Position numbers and translations under genes: made by a program
Shown: positions 32,025 to 52,606 of the stretch, one piece after another
Layout: each line of letters opens with the position of its first letter
How positions within the stretch are numbered: position 1 is the stretch's first letter
Origin: Ignavibacteriales bacterium
GTDB taxonomy: Bacteria > Bacteroidota > Ignavibacteria > Ignavibacteriales > Ignavibacteriaceae
DNA: 64,000 nucleotides
Direction of reading: 5' to 3'
Assembly (NCBI GenBank): GCA_016709155.1
Contig: JADJEI010000013.1
Coordinates: 904,093-968,092, forward strand
The notes under the pieces: generated by a model
Database searches by the model: none
Seen by the model: only the letters and a program-made list of their open reading frames with translations
Told to the model about the DNA's origin: nothing

Positions 32025-32182
32025 TCAATTTTTATTAATCGGTAAAATTATCTCTTGCTTTTGTTTAATTCTCTTTCTAAATTTCCTACGCCAATACAGA
32101 AAGGAAAATTTTTTAGTTTGAAAAGGATGTACTGGGAGTCATTCTTAATGAATATAAATAATTCTAAAATAATGAGGTAAGT

Positions 32183-34424: not shown

Positions 34425-35658
34425 ATGAAAAGTATAATATCAATTCTGTTTTTTCTTTCAATTTCAATTTCCAACTTTGCGGCTACTTGTATTGAATGCC
34501 ACAGGCAAATTACACCTAACATCGTAACTGACTGGCAGCTCAGCAAGCATTCTGCAAACGATGTTGATTGCTCGGTGTGTCATGGTGATCAACATACAAA
34601 TGCAAATGACTTTAAGAATGCACTTATCCCCACCCCTGAAACATGCAAGCTTTGCCACGAAACTCAGGTTGAGCAATTCAGTAAAGGTAAACATGCAATG
34701 GCTTGGGCTTCGCTTAAGGCTATGCCGACTTTCCACATGCAGCCAATGGCGATGACTGAAGGTATGAAGGGCTGCGGCGGTTGTCATAAGATCGGTTTAA
34801 AATCAGAAGAAGAAATCAAGCAGCTTAAAAGTGAAGGTTCCGGTTTTGGTCTTGCGTCCTGCGACGCCTGCCATACCCGTCACACATTTTCTGTTGTTGA
34901 GGCTAAACAGCCGCAGGCATGTCAAACCTGCCACATGGGTTTTGACCACCCCCAATGGGAAATGTATTCAAGTTCAAAACATGGTGTTCGTAGTTCGTTA
35001 AAGCAAATGGATCTTCTTCCTGAATCTTCTTCTGCACCCACCTGTCAAACTTGTCACATGCAAGAGGGCAATCACGAAGTCCGTACTGCCTGGGGATTTC
35101 TCGCTGTCCGTCTGCCAATGCCTGAAGATAAGCAATGGACTGAGGACCGCGTAACTATATTACAAGGGCTGGGGGTTCTCGATCCTCAAGGCAACCCCAC
35201 CGGAAGGCTTGATGTTGTTAAAGCTGCTGATGTTGCTCGCCTTACTCAGGAAGCCTGGCAAACCGAGCGCGATAAGATGATCAAAACTTGCGGTAACTGT
35301 CACTCCGAGAATTTTGCAAAGGGTGAACTTGAAAAAGGCGACAACATGATCAAAGAAGCTGATCACCTGATGGCGCAGGGTATAAAAATTATTGCCGGGC
35401 TTTATCAGGATGGTATTATTCCTAAGCCTGAAGCTTATGCTTATAATTTCCCCGACTTGCTCACTTTCCATGACGCACCGACGGTTATTGAGCAAAAACT
35501 TTTTTGTGATGTTCCTTGAGCACAGGATGAGAACTTTTCAGGGAACTTTTCACGCGAGCCCTGACTACGCTCTCTGGTACGGCTGGAGTGAAATGCAGCA
35601 GGATTTAACTGAGATTAAAGAAATGGCTATGCAGATGAGAAAAGATTTTAAGCAGTAA
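34425..35658 (+). CDS. periplasmic octahaem c-type cytochrome (HAO-like family, tentative); frameshift at T6 35501..35506
   Basis: Signal peptide and eight CxxCH motifs. Removing one T joins ...TVIEQKLF to VMFLEHRMRTFQGTFHASPDYALWYGWSEM... (ORF 35392..35658 frame). Confidence 0.75.
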
Positions 35659-35692
35659 AAGTTTTTAGCTCCCCCCTCATAGTTGATGAATA

Positions 35693-35731
35693 AAAAAAAC
35701 CTCCGGAGTTTTTAAGCTCCGGAGGTTTTTT
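35693..35731. terminator. bidirectional terminator between convergent genes
   Basis: AAAAAACCTCCGGAG tttttaag CTCCGGAGGTTTTTT. Confidence 0.8.
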
Positions 35732-35777
35732 AAATAATTATTATCAACAAACAATAAATGAACCCCATTAAATATTT

Positions 35778-36389
35778 TTACGGTACTGCGATAGTTGCTA
35801 CATCAGATTCTAATCCAACTTCTACATCACCGATAACATAGACGGCTTTATACTCACGCATCTCTGCACCTGCAGCGAGGTTTTCGCGTGTGTCTATGTA
35901 AGGACTTTCGGTGTCAAAAGCTAAAAGTGTCCATTCAGTTTCACCTGCACGGCGGGTGTATATCTTCACTCCATCAGCAATACTTTTTTGAAATGAAATT
36001 CTAACATGCTGATTTGGCATAAGGAACAACTTCAATATTGGTTTCATTGTGTCTTTATCAACAAATGAATCAACACCTTCAATGCCAAGATCCTGACCGA
36101 TTGCTATAGTGTAATTCGGGTTTGCCTTCATCTGCCTTCCTTGAGCTCTGATTAGGTCATTTGCAATTTTTCGTTTTGCTCTTGTATCGGCGTACAGACT
36201 TTCCATATTTGCTTCGGCAGCAACCTGGGTGGAGTATGCAGTGCGGCAGGCACCCACCTTTGTGTTGGCTTCAGTTACCTGAGCCGGTGTGATGGCAAGC
36301 GCAACATTGTGCAGCGGCAGCTTGGTCAAATAATTTTCGTGAAATGTGTCCTGTTCATCAACAGGGCGGGGGATGAAATCCTTTTTCAT
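35778..36389 (-). CDS. hypothetical protein, paralogue of 18227..18859
   Basis: Clean 203-aa ORF, higher G+C than background. Same N-terminal KDFIPR start and C-terminal RRAGE...MREYKAVYVIGDVEVG module. Confidence 0.7.
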   Translation of the reverse strand: MKKDFIPRPVDEQDTFHENYLTKLPLHNVALAITPAQVTEANTKVGACRTAYSTQVAAEANMESLYADTRAKRKIANDLIRAQGRQMKANPNYTIAIGQDLGIEGVDSFVDKDTMKPILKLFLMPNQHVRISFQKSIADGVKIYTRRAGETEWTLLAFDTESPYIDTRENLAAGAEMREYKAVYVIGDVEVGLESDVATIAVP

Positions 36390-36574
36390 AAAAGGTCCTT
36401 TCTGAAAAAATTTTAAATTTGTTATTTATTAAAAGGAACCCTGCTTAATCCACGTTTATTCTCTTTTAAGCTATAAGAGTTCCAACTCAAACACCGGTTT
36501 CGGAATACCCAACTATTGTGCCATATTGATATTTGTTCTTTATTCTAAAAAAATAAAGAAAAGCACTTGGATGT

Positions 36575-36935
36575 GAGTTGCCGACGGTTAAAAATTACAT
36601 GCTGAAGATAAAAATTACCTGCCCAACGGTGGAAAGGTTGGCGCCAACGCTATGACGGGGGGTGGCAACGCGCCCGGGTTTGTAAGCCCCGCTGTACGGT
36701 TGACGGCAACCGTGAGACGGCGCAGACCAACCGTCGCGCAGATGCCTTCCCCGTGTGACGGGTGCCCACCGACAAGACGGCGTTGCAGGCAACCGTGACA
36801 TGGGCGGCTTCCCCCGTGGGACGGTTGGTCCTCACTTTCCGACGGTTATCGCCAACCATCCAAAAGTTAGTGGCAACCGTAGCACGGTTGGTAAAAAGCT
36901 TCGATTTTAGAGTATTTTCAACGGTTATTGGACAT
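36575..36935. repeat. G+C-rich non-coding block packed with ACGGTTG/CAACCGT heptamers and short hairpins
   Basis: Seven exact heptamers (36696, 36707, 36728, 36790, 36821, 36874, 36884) and about as many one-mismatch variants. Palindrome GTTGGCGCCAAC at 36637..36648. ~65% G+C at 36661..36840. Confidence 0.8.
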
Positions 36936-36990
36936 TAATTGTTGCGTGGGTGAAGGGAAATTAGGAAGCATTAAAGAAGTTTAACGTTTC

Positions 36991-37101
36991 GGGGCTTAAA
37001 GAAGTGGCGGGTTAGAAGCACGAACTGTCAACCTACCACAACTGTTTATTAGAAGCACAAATGTTTGATTAACCACTTCACCCGCCATTTCTTTTAAGCC
37101 C
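36991..37101. other. long imperfect hairpin (~20-bp stem, 66-nt loop), possible structured RNA or recombination site
   Basis: GGGGCTTAAAGAAGTGGCGGGT (36991..37012) pairs with CACCCGCCATTTCTTTTAAGCCC (37079..37101), with one bulge and one G-U. Confidence 0.55.
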
Positions 37102-37270
37102 TTGTTATCGGTAGCTCTTCTGTCTGTCCGAAGATGTGTCGTGTCAAGTTTGCACACACTTTGTCCGAAGCGAATTACATTAGAAGCTATGTCCGTCCAA
37201 TTACGCACAGTGCGTTGACAAAATAAATTAAAACATTGAAGAGTGTATTTTTTTTGCGTTGATTTTTTCA

Positions 37271-37828
37271 TCAGTTGTATCTTTTGTTTACTGTTTCCAT
37301 ATAATCTACCACAACTGCATTCATTTTATTTCGATACCACCGAAAAAAGAAATTAGGAACTTTTGCAGCTTCTTGTCGGCTGATATAAATTTCGTCTTGT
37401 ACGTCACGAAGTTCGTCTGTGCCAATATATATTTTATTGAGAATTATTTCGTCCAAATATATTGAGATAGCTTTTCGTCTATCAATTGCAGATGAGTGTC
37501 CACGAATAAGAGTAATAAAGTGAGTGTAAAATGAGAGTATAGAAAAGTAAATTAAAAAAATAGTCATGCCATTTGAGTTGTAAGAAATAAGAAATATCCA
37601 AAGCACGATTGAATAGGAAATAAGAAATCCCGCCAACCATCTACAATAAATAATGCGTAACTCAATATCCCAACTTGTGTTTGAATGTTGCAAAACTGCT
37701 ACGGAAATATTATGAGGAATCGTTGTTGAAATGTTTGGTGAATACCAATCTATAATTTCATTGCCTTTGTATTCAAGAGAAAATTTTGAAACTTCGAATG
37801 GTCTGGCTTCTTTAAGGTTGACTTCCAT
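37271..37828 (-). CDS. 2-TM membrane protein with charged helical C-tail (candidate membrane effector, second half)
   Basis: TM helices LAGFLISYSIVLWIFLISY and MTIFLIYFSILSFYTHFITLI. Overlaps the upstream gene by 17 nt. Confidence 0.6.
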   Translation of the reverse strand: MEVNLKEARPFEVSKFSLEYKGNEIIDWYSPNISTTIPHNISVAVLQHSNTSWDIELRIIYCRWLAGFLISYSIVLWIFLISYNSNGMTIFLIYFSILSFYTHFITLIRGHSSAIDRRKAISIYLDEIILNKIYIGTDELRDVQDEIYISRQEAAKVPNFFFRWYRNKMNAVVVDYMETVNKRYN

Positions 37829-38135
37829 CGTAAATTAAAAGTGCAGTGTCAAACTCTTCCTTAAATATTGCTCCCTTAGAAGTATTTCCTTTGAAAGTAT
37901 CTGCGAATATTTGAACTAAAACAGTAAGCAAAAAAGAACAACCGAATAAAGCAAGTTTTATGCTTTCGTCTTTGATAAGAACATAGGCGATAGGGTAAGC
38001 AAAAGCAAGAAAGATTAAAAAGTAAGTAACTTTTATTTCACCATTCTTTGCTTTTGTATATGCAACTGTTGATGCTTTTAGCAGCTTAATAAATTCAGGT
38101 TCGTTTTGTTTTATCAGAATTTCATTCATTTTCAT
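37812..38135 (-). CDS. 2-TM membrane protein (candidate membrane effector, first half)
   Basis: TM helices VTYFLIFLAFAYPIAYVLI and LALFGCSFLLTVLVQIFA. The start overlaps the upstream ORF end by 14 nt. Confidence 0.6.
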   Translation of the reverse strand: MKMNEILIKQNEPEFIKLLKASTVAYTKAKNGEIKVTYFLIFLAFAYPIAYVLIKDESIKLALFGCSFLLTVLVQIFADTFKGNTSKGAIFKEEFDTALLIYDGSQP

Positions 38136-38738
38136 TGTTGTTTAATTTCCAATCAGGATAAATAGCTTCATTTACTATTTTCTCTGCGATTTCAAAAAGG
38201 TAATCGGGAATAGTGACTGAATTTTCCTTTTTTGTTTTTACAATTTCCTCTGCCGTTTTTTTTGCTAAAGATTTTAATGAGGGATGGCCCAGTGAAATTC
38301 TTATATGGTCGCCTTTGTGTGATTCTCCATACACTTGAAAAATCTTTTGCTCTATTTCGGTTTGCCAATTATTCATTATAGTTTTACAAATTGGCTTGAG
38401 AGTATCGGGATAAGCCTGATAAGCATTCAACAAATTGGTGATAGCCCTTCTTTCAATTGTTCTCCAATTGGCAAAGATGTATTCACTTTTGTCTTCCATA
38501 AATAATTTTGATGAAAAGGAATATCCATCAATCCATAATAGAAATCCCTGTTTAATTTAAGCTTTCTGTTTGACAAAAAATTGTTAATGATATTGCTTAT
38601 AATGATTGTTACAAAATCATGAGTTGTTTCAATAGAAGAATAATATCTTAATGCAGACAAAACCGAGAATAAATATTTTCCTGAATTCCAATCAGGGTCG
38701 CTCAACCTTTTTTGAGCGGCTTTTTTTTTCCGCCTCAT
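38122..38738 (-). CDS. C-terminal continuation of the repeat protein (two overlapping ORF fragments) or a separate 125-aa protein
   Basis: ORF 38427..38738 continues the repeat consensus (AAQKRLSDPDWNS) in another frame after T9 38721..38729. ORF 38122..38499 overlaps it by 73 nt in a third frame. Confidence 0.45.
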
Positions 38739-39773
38739 TTTCTTTTTGATTAAAAGCGGCTACGACAATATCATGTTGAAGCGAAGTGATGTTTTGGTCG
38801 CTCAATATTTTATGAGCGGCTTGTTGTTTTTCCGTCTCATTTCCTTTTTGATTAAAAGCGGCTACGACAATATGATGTATTAGCGAAGTAATGTTTGGGT
38901 CGCTCAATATTTTATGAGCGGCTTGTTGTTTTTCCGTCTCATTTTCTTTTTGATTAAAAGCGGCTACGACAATATCATGTTGAAGCGAAGTGATGTTTGG
39001 GTCGCTCAATATTTTATGAGCGGCTTGTTGTTTTTCCGTCTCATTTTCTTTTTGATTAAAAGCGGCTACGACAATATCATGTTGAAGTGAAGTGATGTTT
39101 GGGTCGCTCAATATTTTTTGAGCGGCTTGTAGTTTTTCCGTCTCATTTCCGTTTTGATTAAAAGCGGCTACGACAATAACAGTTTGAAGCGAAGTGATGT
39201 TTGGGTCGCTCAATATATTTTGAGCGGCTTGTTGTTTTTCCGTCTCATTTCCTTTTTGATTAAAGGCGGCATTTACAATTATCCCATTGATTGAATAGAT
39301 GTTTGGGTCGCTCAATATTTTTTGAGCGGCTTGTAGTTTTTCCGTCTCATTTCCTTGTTGATTAAAAGCGGCATTTACAATTATCCCATTGATTGAATAG
39401 ATGTTTGGGTCGCTCAATATTTTTGAGCAGCTAATTGTTTTTCCGTCTCATTTTCTTTTTGATTAAAAGCGGCTACGACAATATCATGTTGAAGCGAAGT
39501 GATGTTTTGGTCGCTCAATATTTTATGAGCGGCTTGTTGTTTTTCCTCTTTGCCCGCTTTTTTGAAATAGTTTAACCATGCTAAATTGGGATAAACTTTC
39601 TTGTCATAGAGCTTATCTAAATATCCTACTATTTGAACGGGAGTTAAATTGATATCCTCATCAGTTAAATGATTAAGATATGACGGATATAAGTTGCCTT
39701 TTTCAAATAATATATTTATCAACAATAGTTTCTCCTGACCATCAGCAAATATTTGATTCTGGTATTGCATCAT
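38692..39773 (-). CDS. tandem 34-aa repeat (TPR-length) protein; two ORFs joined across T5 39420..39424
   Basis: Repeats of SDPNITSLQHDIVVAAFNQKENETEKQQAAHKIL. ORFs 39414..39773 and 38692..39417 differ by a 1-nt deletion relative to sister units. Confidence 0.7.
38697..39560. repeat. 102-bp tandem repeat array (about 8 full units plus degenerate ends), coding
   Basis: GTCG landmarks at 38797, 38899, 39001, 39103, 39205, 39307 and 39409 (exact 102-bp spacing), then 39510 (101 bp). Confidence 0.9.
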
Positions 39774-39778
39774 AGCAG

Positions 39779-41248
39779 CTAAAAAAATGATGAGAAATTA
39801 TCATAGCTTGGTGCATAGTTGTCAATTACAATATTCAGAAATTGTTTCAATAATAAATCATCATATTTTTTTGTGACAGGGTTATAAAATTCCAGCCATC
39901 CGTCTAAAATCACTCCGGCTAATCCTTCTTCGGCTAATTTATCGTGGTTGAATTGAACAAAATCTATTTGTTGAAGTTTTTTGTTTCTTAATGATGTATT
40001 CCTTCCTTTGTTTATATAACTTTTTACCCGTTCAAGAATAGTTGAGCGAGCATTCCAACTCGTAAAGGCGTTACTTACTTTATCATTTTCATTATAGGTA
40101 TCCGCAATTTTCAGAAATGTATCAAAGTCAATAAATATTTTGTGGTTGGTGTAAATGCAAGCCCAGTTGTGCAATGCTTTTGCCATTCCGGGATATACGG
40201 CATTTATTTTTTTCAAATCACTTTTCACAATGCTTTTAAAAGCCAAGCCGGGTTCAGAGAAATCAATTTCCATAGGGTCAAATTTTTCATTGCTCACTCG
40301 TGCAATTACAAACAACAAGAGGAATAGACTCGTATTATAATACTCCTGCTTCTTTGTAACTTTTTCTTTGGCATCTTTCCATTCTGTGTGAAGCTCCATG
40401 ATTTCAGCAATAATTTTTTCGTTTTCGGTTGATTGGAGATGAAATACATTTAATGGATCAGGTAGGTTATTAATATATTCCTTCCCCGAAGTTTCCCTGT
40501 CACCAATAATAACTCTGATGTTGTTTATGGCTTGTGTTTTAAGTAAAAACTCTTTTGCTTTTTCCTTTAGATTATCTGTAAGACGATACCAGTCTTCAAT
40601 TATTACTAAATAATTTCTAAAACGGTCCTCTTGTATTTGTATCAATCCATTATCCGTAAAGTTTTCAAACCCCCTGTCTTTTACCCAAATAAATTTAAAA
40701 GATTCGTTGCATAGTTCAACTGCCAATCGTCTAAGCAAGGTAGATTTACCACAGCCACCAAAACCATGCACTACTGCTACAACTTTGTATGTTCTTGGTT
40801 TATCAAAGCAACTAGAAGCGATTGTTTTAACTTTTCCGTAATCATTCCTTACCACATCATAATTATTTATTACACCATACCACTGGCAATTTTCGTCCTG
40901 TTTTGCAGTGTAGAAATCAGGTTTTGTAAATTGTTTTCCGTTCTTAATCCTTCTTATGAAAGTGCTGTTAATTACTTCAGCACCTTCTATATGTATGTTT
41001 TCAATTTTGTCTTTGTTGTCTTGCAGGAATTGGAGAAAAAGTTTTGTGCCTTTGATACATTCATCTTTATATAACTTAATAAAAGTGTAATCCCTATCCT
41101 TAAATTCAGCTTTCTCTGCAACATCATCATTCTTCAAATCAAAGTGGTAGATTTTTATGTCATTTCCTTTTAATCCTTTAAAAAACTTGTCGAATACAAT
41201 CTGTTCATTAAATTGAGTGCCGAGAATAATTAGTTTTTTTTGTTTGAA
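39779..41248 (-). CDS. P-loop STAND/NACHT-like NTPase segment
   Basis: Walker A VVHGFGGCGKSTLL and Walker B YLVIIEDW. The frame is open upstream to 41248, beyond the ORF-track TTG at 41137. Confidence 0.75.
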   Translation of the reverse strand, partial: FKQKKLIILGTQFNEQIVFDKFFKGLKGNDIKIYHFDLKNDDVAEKAEFKDRDYTFIKLYKDECIKGTKLFLQFLQDNKDKIENIHIEGAEVINSTFIRRIKNGKQFTKPDFYTAKQDENCQWYGVINNYDVVRNDYGKVKTIASSCFDKPRTYKVVAVVHGFGGCGKSTLLRRLAVELCNESFKFIWVKDRGFENFTDNGLIQIQEDRFRNYLVIIEDWYRLTDNLKEKAKEFLLKTQAINNIRVIIGDRETSGKEYINNLPDPLNVFHLQSTENEKIIAEIMELHTEWKDAKEKVTKKQEYYNTSLFLLLFVIARVSNEKFDPMEIDFSEPGLAFKSIVKSDLKKINAVYPGMAKALHNWACIYTNHKIFIDFDTFLKIADTYNENDKVSNAFTSWNARSTILERVKSYINKGRNTSLRNKKLQQIDFVQFNHDKLAEEGLAGVILDGWLEFYNPVTKKYDDLLLKQFLNIVIDNYAPSYDNFSSFF

Positions 41249-41844
41249 TCAATATCCCCATAAATAACGTTATATAAAGAGTTTTGTTCTGCTCCAAGTT
41301 TAGTATATGAAGCGGAAGTAAAAACAATATTATCCAAGGTAGTTTCTTCATTCATTAATCCGTGAAGGTGAAGAATACAATTATCATTACTATCCATTGT
41401 ATACGCCGGATAATTAAAAACCGGATACTTTTTCCCTTTATGTTTTGATTGAATTGTAGTTAAAACATTATCAAAATTAAAAGTGAAAATTGAATACCAG
41501 TTCGGCAGAAAAACCGAATCAAACAACTCGAAGTTAAATGCCGTTTCATCCACTAAAAATAAATTTCTTAGCTCATTAAGCAAATTAGGATTATTAGCAA
41601 TTTTGTTTTCCCATACCGATGCAGCAGCTTTATATTCTGTAACTGATTTTGTAAATTTTTCATTTGTAAATTTTATGAATTGTTCAGCCGTTGGAATTGT
41701 ACTAAATTCTTTGTTTTTATTCTTGACTCCAAAACTGAAACCAGCACCGAGAACCAAACAAAAATGCCCTTCTCTTAAGTCATCAAAAAAAGAATTGTCC
41801 GGCTTGAAATCGGCAATCAAAACAATATGGTTATCTTTGCTCAT
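41230..41844 (-). CDS. SIR2-like (SIR2_2-type) domain segment
   Basis: FCLVLGAGFS glycine-rich start, ILHLHG catalytic-His context, IVFTSASY. The expected LIILGTQF strand follows in the next frame after the T8 run 41234..41241. Confidence 0.7.
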   Translation of the reverse strand: MSKDNHIVLIADFKPDNSFFDDLREGHFCLVLGAGFSFGVKNKNKEFSTIPTAEQFIKFTNEKFTKSVTEYKAAASVWENKIANNPNLLNELRNLFLVDETAFNFELFDSVFLPNWYSIFTFNFDNVLTTIQSKHKGKKYPVFNYPAYTMDSNDNCILHLHGLMNEETTLDNIVFTSASYTKLGAEQNSLYNVIYGDIDSNKKN

Positions 41845-42187
41845 ATGTGAAAAACAAAAAAATGTGCTGGGGCAAAAATTAAAAAAACTTCATTGCGGCT
41901 GTGCGATAAAGTTATCATTCCATTTGGTTTCGTATTGAAAAATGTTCGTTTCATATCATTCAGTTTTAAGTTTCACAGTCGCCAATAGGGTTGCACATAA
42001 CTTGTTTATACCAGCCATAAAGTTGCACATATACAATGGCATTGCCATTAGCTTTGCGTTATAAACGGCTGTTATTATTTCTGGTACAAACATAAAAAAT
42101 AATATTATAATTCATCAAATGGTGATTTCATTTTCCGCAAACTTTCATCTCACTCATCACTTCTCTTGTCTACTCTTTGTGGAGCGA

Positions 42188-42949
42188 TTATTTTTTCCTG
42201 ATGTAGATGATTTTAATATTCTTTTTACCTGTGTCACGCTCATCAATTTCAAATCTGTTCAGGCTTTTAATTAAGGGCAGCATTTTGGGGAAGCCGTAAT
42301 TTCTGGGGTCAAAGTCGGGTTTCTTTTTCAGCATCAGGTTCCCTAATTCGCCTAAAAAAGTCCAGCCATTTTCGTCGGCAAGGTCAGTTATGCTGTCGGT
42401 TAATAGATTGATTAAATCAGAGTCAACTTTGCTCAAAGGATTATTGTCAGGTGGTGCTGCATCCTTTGATATTTTTTTATGCCTGTCTGCCGGCTGTCTT
42501 GTTGTTTTTGTTTTTAAAATTTCGAGGTAGATGAATTTATCGCAGGCGGTTATAAAAGGATTTAAGGTTTTCTTTTCTCCAATTCCAATTACTTTCATAC
42601 CTGCTTCTCTAAGTCTTGTGGCAAGTCTTGTAAAATCGCTGTCGCTTGAAACAATACAAAAGCCACCCACCTTACCGGTGTATAAAATATCCATCGCATC
42701 AATTATAAGTGCGCTGTCACTTGCGTTTTTTCCTATCGAGTAGCTGTACTGCTGTATTGGAGTAATGGCATTTTCTAAAAGCACGTGTTTCCAGCCGGAA
42801 ACGGATTGCTTTGTCCAATCAGCATAAATTCTTTTAAAGGTAGGTGTACCATACTTTGCAATTTCCTCAAACATTTCTTTCACGTTTGCGTAAGGCACAT
42901 TGTCGGCATCAATTAATACTGCTAATTTCAGGTCATTTTGGGTTTCCAT
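42188..42949 (-). CDS. NYN (PIN-like) nuclease domain protein with C-terminal LOTUS/OST-HTH-like module
   Basis: LAVLIDADNV...IYADW...GKNASDSALIIDAMD...FCIVSSDSDFTRLATRLRE.G NYN signature. C-terminal GWTFLGELGNLMLKKKPDFDPRNYGF. Confidence 0.8.
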   Translation of the reverse strand: METQNDLKLAVLIDADNVPYANVKEMFEEIAKYGTPTFKRIYADWTKQSVSGWKHVLLENAITPIQQYSYSIGKNASDSALIIDAMDILYTGKVGGFCIVSSDSDFTRLATRLREAGMKVIGIGEKKTLNPFITACDKFIYLEILKTKTTRQPADRHKKISKDAAPPDNNPLSKVDSDLINLLTDSITDLADENGWTFLGELGNLMLKKKPDFDPRNYGFPKMLPLIKSLNRFEIDERDTGKKNIKIIYIRKK

Positions 42950-44400: not shown

Positions 44401-44644
44401 AAATCCTCCCGGATAAAATGAAATAATTAATTGAGTTTAATTTATCAATGATAACTTTTACTTTTATCAAGAGTAAACTTAAGTGTAACGGAGTGATCTT
44501 CAAAAACTAAAATTATACACACTGCTGTCCGAAATAATTTTAATATCAGTAAAAGAAATTAAAATTGAATTGTAATGAGAAGGATTTTTTATATAACTAA
44601 AAACAGTCTCTATTACCTATTAGGCAAGTTGATTCTACAGAAGA

Positions 44645-44746
44645 GCAAACCGTTAAAACGGTTGCAGTTAAATATTTTTTAAGTTCTCAACGGGATTAAT
44701 CCCGTTGAGAATGTGAATCAAAGAATGATTAACCGTTTCAACGGTT
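44645..44746. repeat. three AACCGTT/AACGGTT-type palindromic hairpins in a divergent intergenic region
   Basis: GCAAACCGTTaaAACGGTTGC (44645..44665); perfect 28-nt palindrome TTCTCAACGGGATTAATCCCGTTGAGAA (44684..44711); AACCGTTtcAACGGTT (44731..44746). Confidence 0.8.
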
Positions 44747-44914
44747 TCAAAGTTCGATTAGTAAAGTAGTGTATTTAGAATTAGTCAAAAACATTCAATA
44801 TTTTTTCAAAAAAATTATTTTGGAAAGATGTGATTATACAACACTATTTTTAATCCCTTCATTATCAGTGCCTTGAGTATTATTTTTGTTTAGTAAAAAA
44901 AATAAAGAGATGTT

Positions 44915-51487: not shown

Positions 51488-52606
51488 AATATTGATCGCA
51501 CCCGATTCGTTTAAGGAATGTATTGACTCAATTTCGCTGGCAGCGCTTATTGAAGATGAATTTAAAAAGTTTAATAACTATGAACTGAAATCAAAACCAA
51601 TTTCTGACGGCGGAGATGGATTTCTGAATGTTTGTAAAAATTACTTTCAACTTGAAGAAGTTAAATATTCAGTCTCAACAGCTTATAATGAAGACATAAT
51701 GATTTGCCAAATTGGATATGATAAGATTAGAAGAAATATTTTTATAGAATCGGCTGATGTACTCGGACTAAAAAAATTCCTGCCGACAAGAGAAAACCTT
51801 TAAAGCTTAACTCAAAAGGATTAGGAGAGCTTCTTTTACAAATTAAATCAGATGTAGAAAAAGAAAAACTAAATTGTGACTCAATTTATCTTGGTATTGG
51901 CGGCACCGGCACAGTTGATTTCGGACTTGGTATGTGTTCAAAACTCGGGTTACAAATATCTGATTTTTATAAAAAAGAAATGGATGTACTCCCTGAAAAT
52001 TATTTCCGCATGGGTGAAATTTATCCGCCGAACAAGACTTTGCCATTTAATATTATTTGTGTTGTTGACGTTCAGAATCAATTGATAGGACAGGATGGGG
52101 CAGTGATAAAATTTGCCTCACAGAAAGGCGCATCACCGTCAGATATTAAATTGTTAGAACTTGGGTTTAGTAAAATTCTAAACATCCTTCAAACGAAAAA
52201 CTTGATAGGGAATGAAAAATCTTTTTCCGGGGCAGGTGGAGGAATTGCTGCGGCACTTCAAATATTTTATAATGCGAAAATTATACAAGCCAAAGATTTT
52301 ATTCTTAATTTGCTCGATGTGAAGATGGAGATTGATCATTCGGAAATTATAATTACCGGTGAAGGCAAGTTCGATTCACAAAGTTTACTCGGCAAAGGTG
52401 CATACTCAATTGCAGAATATGCCTTACAAAAAAATAAAAAGGTTTTTTTTGTCTGTGGTAAATCTGAAATGAAAGCCGGCAATTTTGATAATGACAATTT
52501 CTCTATTATAGAGTTGAGCAATTTTATGAGTTCAGAAAACGAATCAATTCAAAATATAAATCGGGGTATTTCTTTAGCATGTGAGCTAATCCGGTCTAAA
52601 CTTTGA
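51477..52606 (+). CDS. glycerate kinase, interrupted at A7 51770..51776
   Basis: KILIAPDSFKE...SDGGDGF N-terminus. One extra A joins ...DVLGLKK to IPADKRKPLKLNSKGLGELL...GIGGTGTVDFG and the 51932..52606 ORF. Confidence 0.75.

Follow-up and report, generated by a model that had tools for sequence, protein, structure and literature searches.

A recurrent SIR2-STAND and S_4TM gene pair, a candidate two-gene anti-phage module, in a variable slot of an Ignavibacteriales genome

Results

The window analyzed here is the whole 64,000-nt stretch of contig JADJEI010000013.1 (positions 904,093 to 968,092) from an Ignavibacteriales bacterium (GenBank assembly GCA_016709155.1), and the element in question is an operon of two genes within it. 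The upstream gene encodes a SIR2-STAND protein with a predicted NADase (NAD+-cleaving) domain, a P-loop NTPase and a repeat sensor, and the downstream gene encodes an S_4TM membrane protein of the type found as an effector in CBASS. The region was first singled out in a reading of the letters and their open reading frames (ORFs), referred to below as the original prediction, which had placed all genes on the minus strand; the ORF list bears this out. Features and frameshift sites are collected in Table 1.

Table 1. Positions in the window of the operon, its surroundings and the seven frameshift sites
Feature	Position	Strand or gene	Basis or detail
Cargo of the variable segment	~36990 to ~42105	(-)	DNA homology with relatives ends at both borders
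NYN + OST-HTH/LOTUS gene, conserved core flank, outside the module	42188..42949	(-)	Pfam NYN E 2.5e-37, OST-HTH/LOTUS E 2.7e-20
Non-coding leader upstream of operon	41845..42105	(-)	Upper border ~42105
SIR2-STAND gene: SIR2_2 NADase domain, nSTAND5 P-loop NTPase, helical arm, 34-aa repeat sensor, conserved C-terminal domain	38122..41844	(-)	Pfam, read-through, homologues
SIR2_2 domain, ~aa 1-280; GAGFS, TFNFD (N123/D125), HLHG (H159/H161)	41004..41844	(-)	PF13289, E 5e-7
STAND NTPase core: Walker A GFGGCGKST, Walker B LVIIEDW, GDR	40475..40888	(-)	PF25199
Tandem array, 8.4 copies of a 102-bp (34-aa) repeat, predicted ligand sensor	38695..39546	(-)	TRF, 89% matches
S_4TM effector gene, 288 aa corrected	37271..38135	(-)	PF18159 halves; PADLOC CBASS 4TM effector
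Non-coding island tail	36990..37270	(-)	Lower border ~36990; long imperfect hairpin 36991-37101
Site 1 (41233)	41234..41241	SIR2-STAND gene	Window A8 (minus strand) vs contigs A9
Site 2 (39787)	39781..39787	SIR2-STAND gene	Window T7 vs contigs T8
Site 3 (39424)	39420..39424	SIR2-STAND gene, inside repeat array	Window A5 vs contigs A6
Site 4 (38724)	38721..38729	SIR2-STAND gene	CA missing in window: contigs GGAAAAACAAAAAGCC vs window GGAAAAA--AAAAGCC
Site 5 (38486)	38487..38490	SIR2-STAND gene	Window A4 vs contigs A5
Site 6 (37836)	37837..37840	S_4TM	Window T4 vs contigs T5
Site 7 (37795)	37795..37797	S_4TM	Window C vs contigs CC: CATTC-GAAG vs CATTCCGAAG

As assembled, the SIR2-STAND gene is read as six consecutive ORF fragments with alternating frames from 41844 to 38122. 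When the fragments were stitched by three-frame read-through and five indels were mended (four deletions of one nucleotide and one of two), a single protein of ~1242 aa was obtained. The original prediction had described a run of fragments that together held a SIR2_2-like domain, a P-loop STAND ATPase and repeats; the three parts and the motifs that it quoted (LVLGAGFS, ILHLHG, LIILGTQF, GFGGCGKST and LVIIEDW) are all present in the translation, and the run itself is corrected to one gene. Pfam profiles support both SIR2 and the P-loop, the SIR2_2 match falling in fragment 41844..41230 and the nSTAND_NTPase5 match (E 7e-11, above the curated cut-off) in fragment 41137..39779. nSTAND5 is the best NTPase family, with nSTAND3 scoring E 0.0046, below its cut-off. 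All 58 columns that are invariant in a 20-sequence family alignment are kept by the corrected protein, among them GAGFS, N123/D125, H159/H161, the Walker A and B motifs (GGCGKST and IIEDW) and GDR, with G361-T369, D418 and G448-R450. The SIR2 motifs line up with LGAGFS, TTNYD and KFHG in 9v0g, a stand-alone SIR2-domain protein of known structure whose deposited name is “NAD-dependent protein deacetylase”.

Among 5.8 billion proteins searched, only 83 relatives of the SIR2-STAND protein were found. The best are 52-57% identical, are encoded by single ORFs of 967-1443 aa and carry SIR2_2 and nSTAND_NTPase5 annotations, several of them aligning over 99% of the query. The family occurs in Ignavibacteriota, Bacteroidota, Cloacimonadota and one Acidobacteriota metagenome-assembled genome (MAG; Pyrinomonadaceae, L010). 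Scans of viral contigs for SIR2-STAND and S_4TM genes found no relatives. For structural comparison an AlphaFold2 (AF2) model of a homologue that has its own S_4TM neighbor (P0011; confidence, pLDDT, 87) was searched with Foldseek. The best PDB match was EfAvs5 (9jap, E 2e-16), and PaAvs5 (9nc9, E 7e-13), DSR2 and ThsA were also found; global TM-scores were only 0.22-0.30, and identity to Avs5 in the structural alignment was ~15%. Human SAMD9 (9zjs; E 9e-14, TM-score 0.30) was the second-best match and outranked PaAvs5. In a Spirosomataceae MAG (L018, 10076-11221), an IS3-family transposase (rve, HTH_Tnp_1) interrupts the SIR2-STAND gene and the S_4TM is intact.

The sensor is formed by a C-terminal domain and, before it, the 34-aa repeats, of which the original prediction had counted about nine near-identical copies, in keeping with the array in Table 1. 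A per-position table shows that variation within the repeat is concentrated at positions 9-14, 17, 23-24 and 30-31. The repeats are all-helical in the P0011 model and are not classed as TPR by Pfam. A single-sequence AF2 model of the repeat fragment (pLDDT 51.5) was not used. The array in a same-species contig (L069) is one 34-aa unit shorter than that of the window, a difference that is either real copy-number variation or short-read collapse. On the plus strand of 38695-39546, each 102-nt unit includes a hairpin of 9-12 bp, GGGTCGCTCAA-N6-8-TTGAGCGGCT, which lies opposite the AAQKILSDP codons in antisense orientation.

The start of the S_4TM gene overlaps the SIR2-STAND stop by 14 nt. It is split in the assembly into ORFs 38135..37812 and 37828..37271, which align with positions 1-96 and 120-285 of the PF18159 profile (291 positions in all) and are therefore halves of one gene. 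The half-ORFs also match nine PADLOC CBASS “4TM effector” models, and the corrected protein matches PADLOC 4TM Effector over its full length (E 1.8e-34). Four hydrophobic 19-residue segments (aa 36-54, 59-77, 167-185 and 193-211; mean Kyte-Doolittle values 1.9-2.15) are arranged 2+2, which explains why two small overlapping proteins with two transmembrane helices each had been proposed. The helices of that proposal stand and its two proteins become the N- and C-terminal halves of one; likewise, the dedicated membrane partner is retained, as a single effector known from CBASS and not a novel 2x2 pair. All 86 columns that are invariant among six S_4TM homologues are kept. A PDB sequence search with S_4TM gave no match. 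Pfam and PADLOC found no CD-NTase or SMODS protein in any island ORF, nor was one found in the Pfam-scanned SIR2-STAND genes lying directly upstream of S_4TM in L018, L019, L021, L025 and L053.

Seven frameshifts thus interrupt the two genes. An exact-sequence cluster look-up placed the 185-aa S_4TM fragment in one cluster with P0327, an intact protein of 288 aa that is identical to the reconstruction at 285 of 288 positions. Contigs encoding P0327 (L069-L072) come from four independent, same-species short-read assemblies, with 98.3-99.3% DNA identity to the window, and both genes are uninterrupted in these assemblies; in L069 a single STAND ORF of 1204 aa or more encodes a protein that shares 99.5% identity with the corrected one of the window, and an intact S_4TM follows it. 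Relative to the four assemblies the window lacks one or two bases at every one of the seven sites, five of which lie in A/T runs of 4-9 bases. No nonsense codons occur in the corrected frames. Because independent same-species assemblies carry both genes intact, the seven frameshifts are most likely assembly consensus errors, at most strain-private changes, and not decay.

Three frameshifted genes were found outside the island, encoding a multiheme cytochrome, a GT4 glycosyltransferase and a glycerate kinase. The cytochrome gene is broken by a window-only indel (T6 vs T5) at 35500, and five other same-species assemblies have an intact 410-aa ORF there. Window-only homopolymer indels outside the island lie at 35500, ~51100, 51770-51776, 32109-32113 and 36752; two of these are intergenic, and the split glycosyltransferase and glycerate kinase genes are both intact in a congeneric contig (L058). 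Since such indels also occur outside the island, they are a general fault of the assembly, and genes that look split elsewhere in this contig are suspect. MAGs with locus tags of this kind presumably come from a long-read activated-sludge project, an origin that would fit deletion-type homopolymer errors.

The pairing of the two genes recurs. In 13 further distinct loci (L006, L018, L019, L021, L025, L031, L032, L035, L036/37, L038, L039, L053 and the P0002 contig), a SIR2-STAND gene is followed immediately by an intact S_4TM gene in the same orientation, and the gap between the genes, measured in nine of these and in the window, ranges from -29 to +37 nt. The co-occurrence of sensor and membrane protein proposed in the original prediction is thereby extended well beyond the window. 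A sensor-first scan (one genome per GTDB species, 24 loci) gave an intact S_4TM after the gene in L018, L019, L021 and L025, and protein look-ups added two paired contigs (P0002 and P0007/L006). In an S_4TM-first scan of metagenomes (27 loci), where the upstream DNA was sufficient, a SIR2-STAND gene was found in eight loci (L031, L032, L035-L039 and L053). S_4TM adjoined nSTAND5 proteins without SIR2 in none of 11 loci. The partner STAND proteins are 27-57% identical, their NTPases are nSTAND5, nSTAND3-like or NB-ARC/AAA_16-like, and their sensors are made of TPR or the 34-aa repeat. As judged from these comparisons, the SIR2 domain, and not the NTPase clade or the sensor, is the apparent constant of the pairing.

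Remnants of an S_4TM N-terminus, 25-35 aa long, are found right after the STAND stop at L031 1233-1337 and L002 4335-4444 (25 aa in L002), and in L031 the remnant is followed by a different intact S_4TM. Their position at the gene junction indicates putative cassette replacement or loss.

S_4TM proteins 50-70% identical to that of the window also follow other genes. Upstream of S_4TM there are a guanylate-kinase-like plus TIR-like protein and two further P-loop kinase-like genes (L043), a metallophosphoesterase (L049), PurM-like AIRS (L051 and L055, with a histidine phosphatase, His_Phos_1, also in L051) and a reverse-transcriptase-like protein (L057); PurM-like AIRS in L056 is assigned from matching ORF sizes only. 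These neighborhoods may be further undescribed S_4TM-based systems.

The operon occupies a bounded segment. DNA homology to congeneric contigs (L058-L061) breaks off at window position 42105, and homology to a close relative (L062) runs to 36999, with unrelated genes beyond in L062; thus the interval ~36990-42105 is cargo in a variable slot. In the congeners the order glycerate kinase, glycosyltransferases, outer membrane protein (OMP), GNAT, NYN-LOTUS is kept (DNA 78-87% identical to the window). In L058 (10871-14010), NYN-LOTUS is followed not by a SIR2-STAND operon but by genes for two N6_N4 methyltransferases and an NgoFVII-type restriction endonuclease. Because of this restriction-modification (R-M) system, the slot next to NYN-LOTUS is, by prediction, a variable defense hotspot, and the defense island of the original prediction is retained in the form of a two-gene operon in that slot. 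Its remark that no integrase or transposase was visible also holds, none being encoded by ORFs within 36990-42105. There is no tRNA gene in the whole window and therefore no tRNA integration site. The island tail contains a 91-aa ORF without Pfam or PADLOC match. Exactly at the lower border, downstream of S_4TM, lies the long imperfect hairpin of Table 1 (inverted repeat I3), which has 22-nt arms that are 82% complementary, a 67-nt loop region and a fold z-score of -2.7; it is also present in L069 and may act as a terminator or be the scar of a recombination event. Rfam searched over 35.5-45.5 kb gave no family at the gathering score and nothing inside the island or the GC-rich block described below, the sole weak matches (E 0.06-0.8) lying outside both, at 35690-35796.

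The upstream flank of the slot is the NYN-LOTUS gene, whose product is intact (253 aa) and has the NYN nuclease domain and LOTUS/OST-HTH-like tail that had been proposed for it. It lies 344 nt upstream of the SIR2-STAND gene on the same strand. The protein has more than 8000 homologues. Its identity to the best 120, which include sequences from Saprospiraceae, Mucilaginibacter and Arcticibacter, is 80-96% and in nearly all cases 82-87%. The congener's copy is 96% identical, and synteny with congeners passes through the gene and ends 83 nt past its stop codon. A tblastn search with the window protein (E <= 1e-3) gave no match in the 30 loci that were fetched first, a set that ends before L031-L057. 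In one related contig, a non-LOTUS NYN gene (189 aa) lies 1.7 kb downstream of S_4TM. The architecture of the window protein is identical to that of LabA/DUF88 NYN + OST-HTH proteins (MARF1/limkain-b1-like), and homologues are named “LabA/DUF88 family” in databases; this likeness concerns the neighbor gene only, and no link to the defense genes was found. From its conservation and synteny, NYN-LOTUS is a core gene and a bystander, not part of the module.

A hairpin bracket, or mobile-element ends, had been suggested from a CAACCGT/ACGGTTG hairpin family on both sides of the locus. This was ruled out by the one-sided distribution of CAACCGT, with seven occurrences at 36696-36890 and only one, at 44658, on the other side, and by the island borders. 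The hairpins at 44.65-44.75 kb share just the 6-mer AACCGT/ACGGTT with the other side and lie outside the island, within core DNA syntenic with relatives. Window positions 36600-36950 form a GC-rich non-coding block (up to ~60% vs 33% background) in which a ~22-nt unit, GTTGNNGGCAACCGTGANANGG, occurs four times at spacings of 62-84 nt, in addition to the seven CAACCGT heptamers, and which has no Rfam match. The block is included in the homology to L062, where it is conserved at 91%, so it is part of the chromosomal backbone. All five same-species short-read core contigs that extend to this region (L063-L067) end at 36212-36684, before or inside the block. On the other side, 44523-44833 is a stretch of ~310 nt that is extra relative to L058, between the OMP and FemAB-like genes, with three short hairpins (AAACCGTTAAAACGGTT, TTCTCAACGGGATTAATCCCGTTGAGAA and AACCGTTTCAACGGTTT); it is possibly a small inserted element.

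Discussion

We consider it probable, though by no means certain, that the window operon is a two-gene anti-phage module in which an Avs5-like NAD-cleaving sensor is coupled to a CBASS-type S_4TM effector within a variable defense slot. The analysis shows which domains are present, that the catalytic and Walker residues are kept, how the operon is built, that the pairing recurs and is confined to STAND proteins with SIR2, that the fold resembles EfAvs5, where the island ends and that intact alleles exist; antiphage function, NADase activity and the triggering of S_4TM are what we infer.

The idea that a single-protein SIR2-STAND-repeat sensor of Avs5 type forms the center of the island is supported. 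The window protein shares with Avs5 (EfAvs5, EcAvs5 and PaAvs5) the order of N-terminal SIR2_2, STAND NTPase and C-terminal repeat sensor, as well as the catalytic N/D, H and Walker motifs, and EfAvs5 and PaAvs5 rank near the top of the structures matched by the P0011 model, at the low global TM-scores given above. Described Avs5 proteins are single genes with an nSTAND3 NTPase and TPR, Sel1 or PPR sensors (bioRxiv 10.1101/2025.07.08.663546; PMC11897194), whereas the window protein has nSTAND_NTPase5 and a novel 34-aa repeat, has a second gene beside it, S_4TM, that is predicted to be co-transcribed, and belongs to a family found in the four phyla named above and not in Pseudomonadota.

The effector half resembles type I CBASS with a 4TM effector (EcCdnD12-4TM), in which an effector of the same family, PF18159, is encoded right after an enzyme that handles nucleotides, the two genes making up the operon. 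CdnD12-4TM operons defend only with an active CD-NTase, and 4TM toxicity depends on CD-NTase activity (bioRxiv 10.1101/2023.05.21.541620). This speaks for S_4TM as an effector that needs a signal, as does the position of related S_4TM genes after further enzymes acting on nucleotides or NAD, a TIR-like protein among them. Unlike such CBASS operons, the island is without CD-NTase/SMODS, and the enzyme encoded upstream is a SIR2 NADase that forms one polypeptide with its own STAND sensor. Type II Thoeris consists of a TIR protein and a Macro-TM (transmembrane) effector. It and the TIR/PNPase-SLATT systems are similar to the window operon in joining an NAD+-processing enzyme to a small membrane effector that is known or predicted to respond to a signal derived from ADP-ribose (ADPR); the window enzyme differs in being SIR2 and not TIR, and its membrane partner is of an unrelated family with no recognizable ligand-binding domain such as Macro. 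NAD-processing enzymes with small transmembrane effectors have been predicted for SLATT (PMC7159879, PMC9503650). Avs2-trypsin + MBL offers a further likeness, the fused N-terminal enzyme of a STAND sensor activating a separately encoded effector (bioRxiv 10.64898/2026.08.25.746987), but there a protease cleaves a nuclease, whereas the window pairs an NADase with a membrane protein. We found no description of the SIR2-STAND and S_4TM pairing in the searchable literature, which excludes the founding S-4TM paper (Burroughs et al. 2015), and the main body of a Nature 2026 STAND survey contains no SIR2 or 4TM text.

The operon is most likely an abortive-infection system. A phage protein would bind the repeat sensor, and ATP-dependent oligomerization or filamentation of the STAND protein would then gather the SIR2 domains and turn on NAD+ cleavage, as filamentation switches on the NADase of Avs5 (PMC11897194; bioRxiv 10.1101/2025.07.08.663546). 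ADP-ribose, a SIR2-made derivative of it or the activated assembly itself would trigger S_4TM, which would permeabilize the inner membrane so that the infected cell aborts the infection.

Several observations weigh against this reading. S_4TM is absent beside three close homologues (P0001, P0006 and P0009) and is present as a remnant only at a fourth (P0003). Being missing there, S_4TM is therefore dispensable for the sensor, and an obligatory signaling relay is weakened. S_4TM proteins 68-70% identical to that of the window are encoded after unrelated enzymes, PurM-like AIRS for instance, and therefore a SIR2-specific ligand is not implied. Characterized defense SIR2 domains deplete NAD+, and none is known to make a second messenger. 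The likeness to Avs5 is also distant at the level of primary structure: PADLOC, whose models recognize the S_4TM, had no match (Avs5 models included) to the corrected STAND protein or to five homologues, and a PDB sequence-profile search with the STAND protein reached stand-alone SIR2 proteins only and not Avs5. Finally, the window copy as assembled is non-functional.

The alternative that survives best dispenses with a small-molecule relay. The oligomerized STAND protein would recruit or open S_4TM by contact, or S_4TM would just anchor the STAND protein at the membrane, and SIR2 would deplete NAD+ independently. The overlap of the genes suggests stoichiometric co-production, S_4TM is optional in the family, and PaAvs5 acts at the membrane-bound phage vesicle (bioRxiv 10.1101/2025.07.08.663546); Avs2-trypsin + MBL provides a precedent for a STAND-fused enzyme that acts directly on a separate effector (bioRxiv 10.64898/2026.08.25.746987). 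However, the association tracks the SIR2 domain and not the NTPase clade or sensor, and near-identical S_4TM cassettes are swapped among unrelated enzymes, which is hard to square with a conserved protein-protein interface. We regard these parallel effectors as having perhaps one chance in a few. Less likely than not is a further proposal, namely that the SIR2 domain of these STAND sensors also makes an NAD-derived nucleotide (ADPR, modified or cyclized) that gates an S_4TM pore.

That both genes are dead pseudogenes in the window strain, with all seven frameshifts real, is improbable. This view at first seemed about as likely as not, since 7 frameshifts within the 4.6 kb of the island, set against 3 found in the other 59 kb of the window, amount to a ~20-fold higher density, and many A8 and A9 runs elsewhere in the window are intact; relatives do decay as well, as the IS3 insertion in L018 and the S_4TM remnant in L002 illustrate. 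It was dropped when same-species contigs with both genes intact were found, so that the frameshifts, on which a dead central gene would have depended, point the other way. At every site 1-2 nt are missing by comparison with four independent assemblies, mostly in A/T runs, and similar window-only indels break the cytochrome, GT4 and glycerate kinase genes. Furthermore, nonsense codons are absent, the corrected STAND protein is nearly identical to an intact allele and every invariant residue is kept. The S_4TM branch shows no acceleration in a relative-rate test, and the stop-prone fraction used for the nonsense-mutation expectation is ~5.5%; each of these two measures gives weak support either way.

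Two further explanations are very unlikely. A chance adjacency of two independent single-gene systems is conceivable in that Avs5-type proteins and transmembrane effectors both occur in defense islands and some SIR2-STAND homologues stand alone, but in 13 further loci, spread over several bacterial families and with partner identities down to 27%, the two genes keep their order and strand and overlap or nearly touch, which argues against it. The three-component system of the original prediction, in which the NYN-LOTUS nuclease works with the SIR2-STAND and membrane proteins, has in its favor the same-strand adjacency and the one contig with a non-LOTUS NYN gene, and is contradicted by the far higher conservation of NYN-LOTUS (82-87% identity in nearly all of its best 120 matches vs 57% for the best SIR2-STAND relative), its retention with GNAT and OMP when the slot holds R-M, the end of congener synteny just beyond its stop codon and the lack of a tblastn match in the first 30 loci.

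On the reading preferred here, that of an Avs5-like sensor with a CBASS-type effector, the pairing joins proteins that have been studied apart: characterized Avs5 proteins are single-gene NAD+-depleting sensors, and S_4TM has so far been tied to CD-NTase signaling only. Note that homopolymer errors in a MAG can make such a two-gene system look like eight ORFs, and that the family is missed by PADLOC v2, leaving such loci unannotated in Bacteroidota and Ignavibacteriota genomes. The conserved operon makes it testable whether a sirtuin signals to a membrane effector or a STAND sensor has two killing activities, and the intact L069 allele is a clean construct for this question. If a SIR2-derived signal does gate S_4TM, CBASS-type 4TM effectors would be generic receivers for several generators other than CD-NTases (SIR2-STAND, TIR-like and PurM-like), and bacterial immunity would include a SIR2-based second-messenger pathway.

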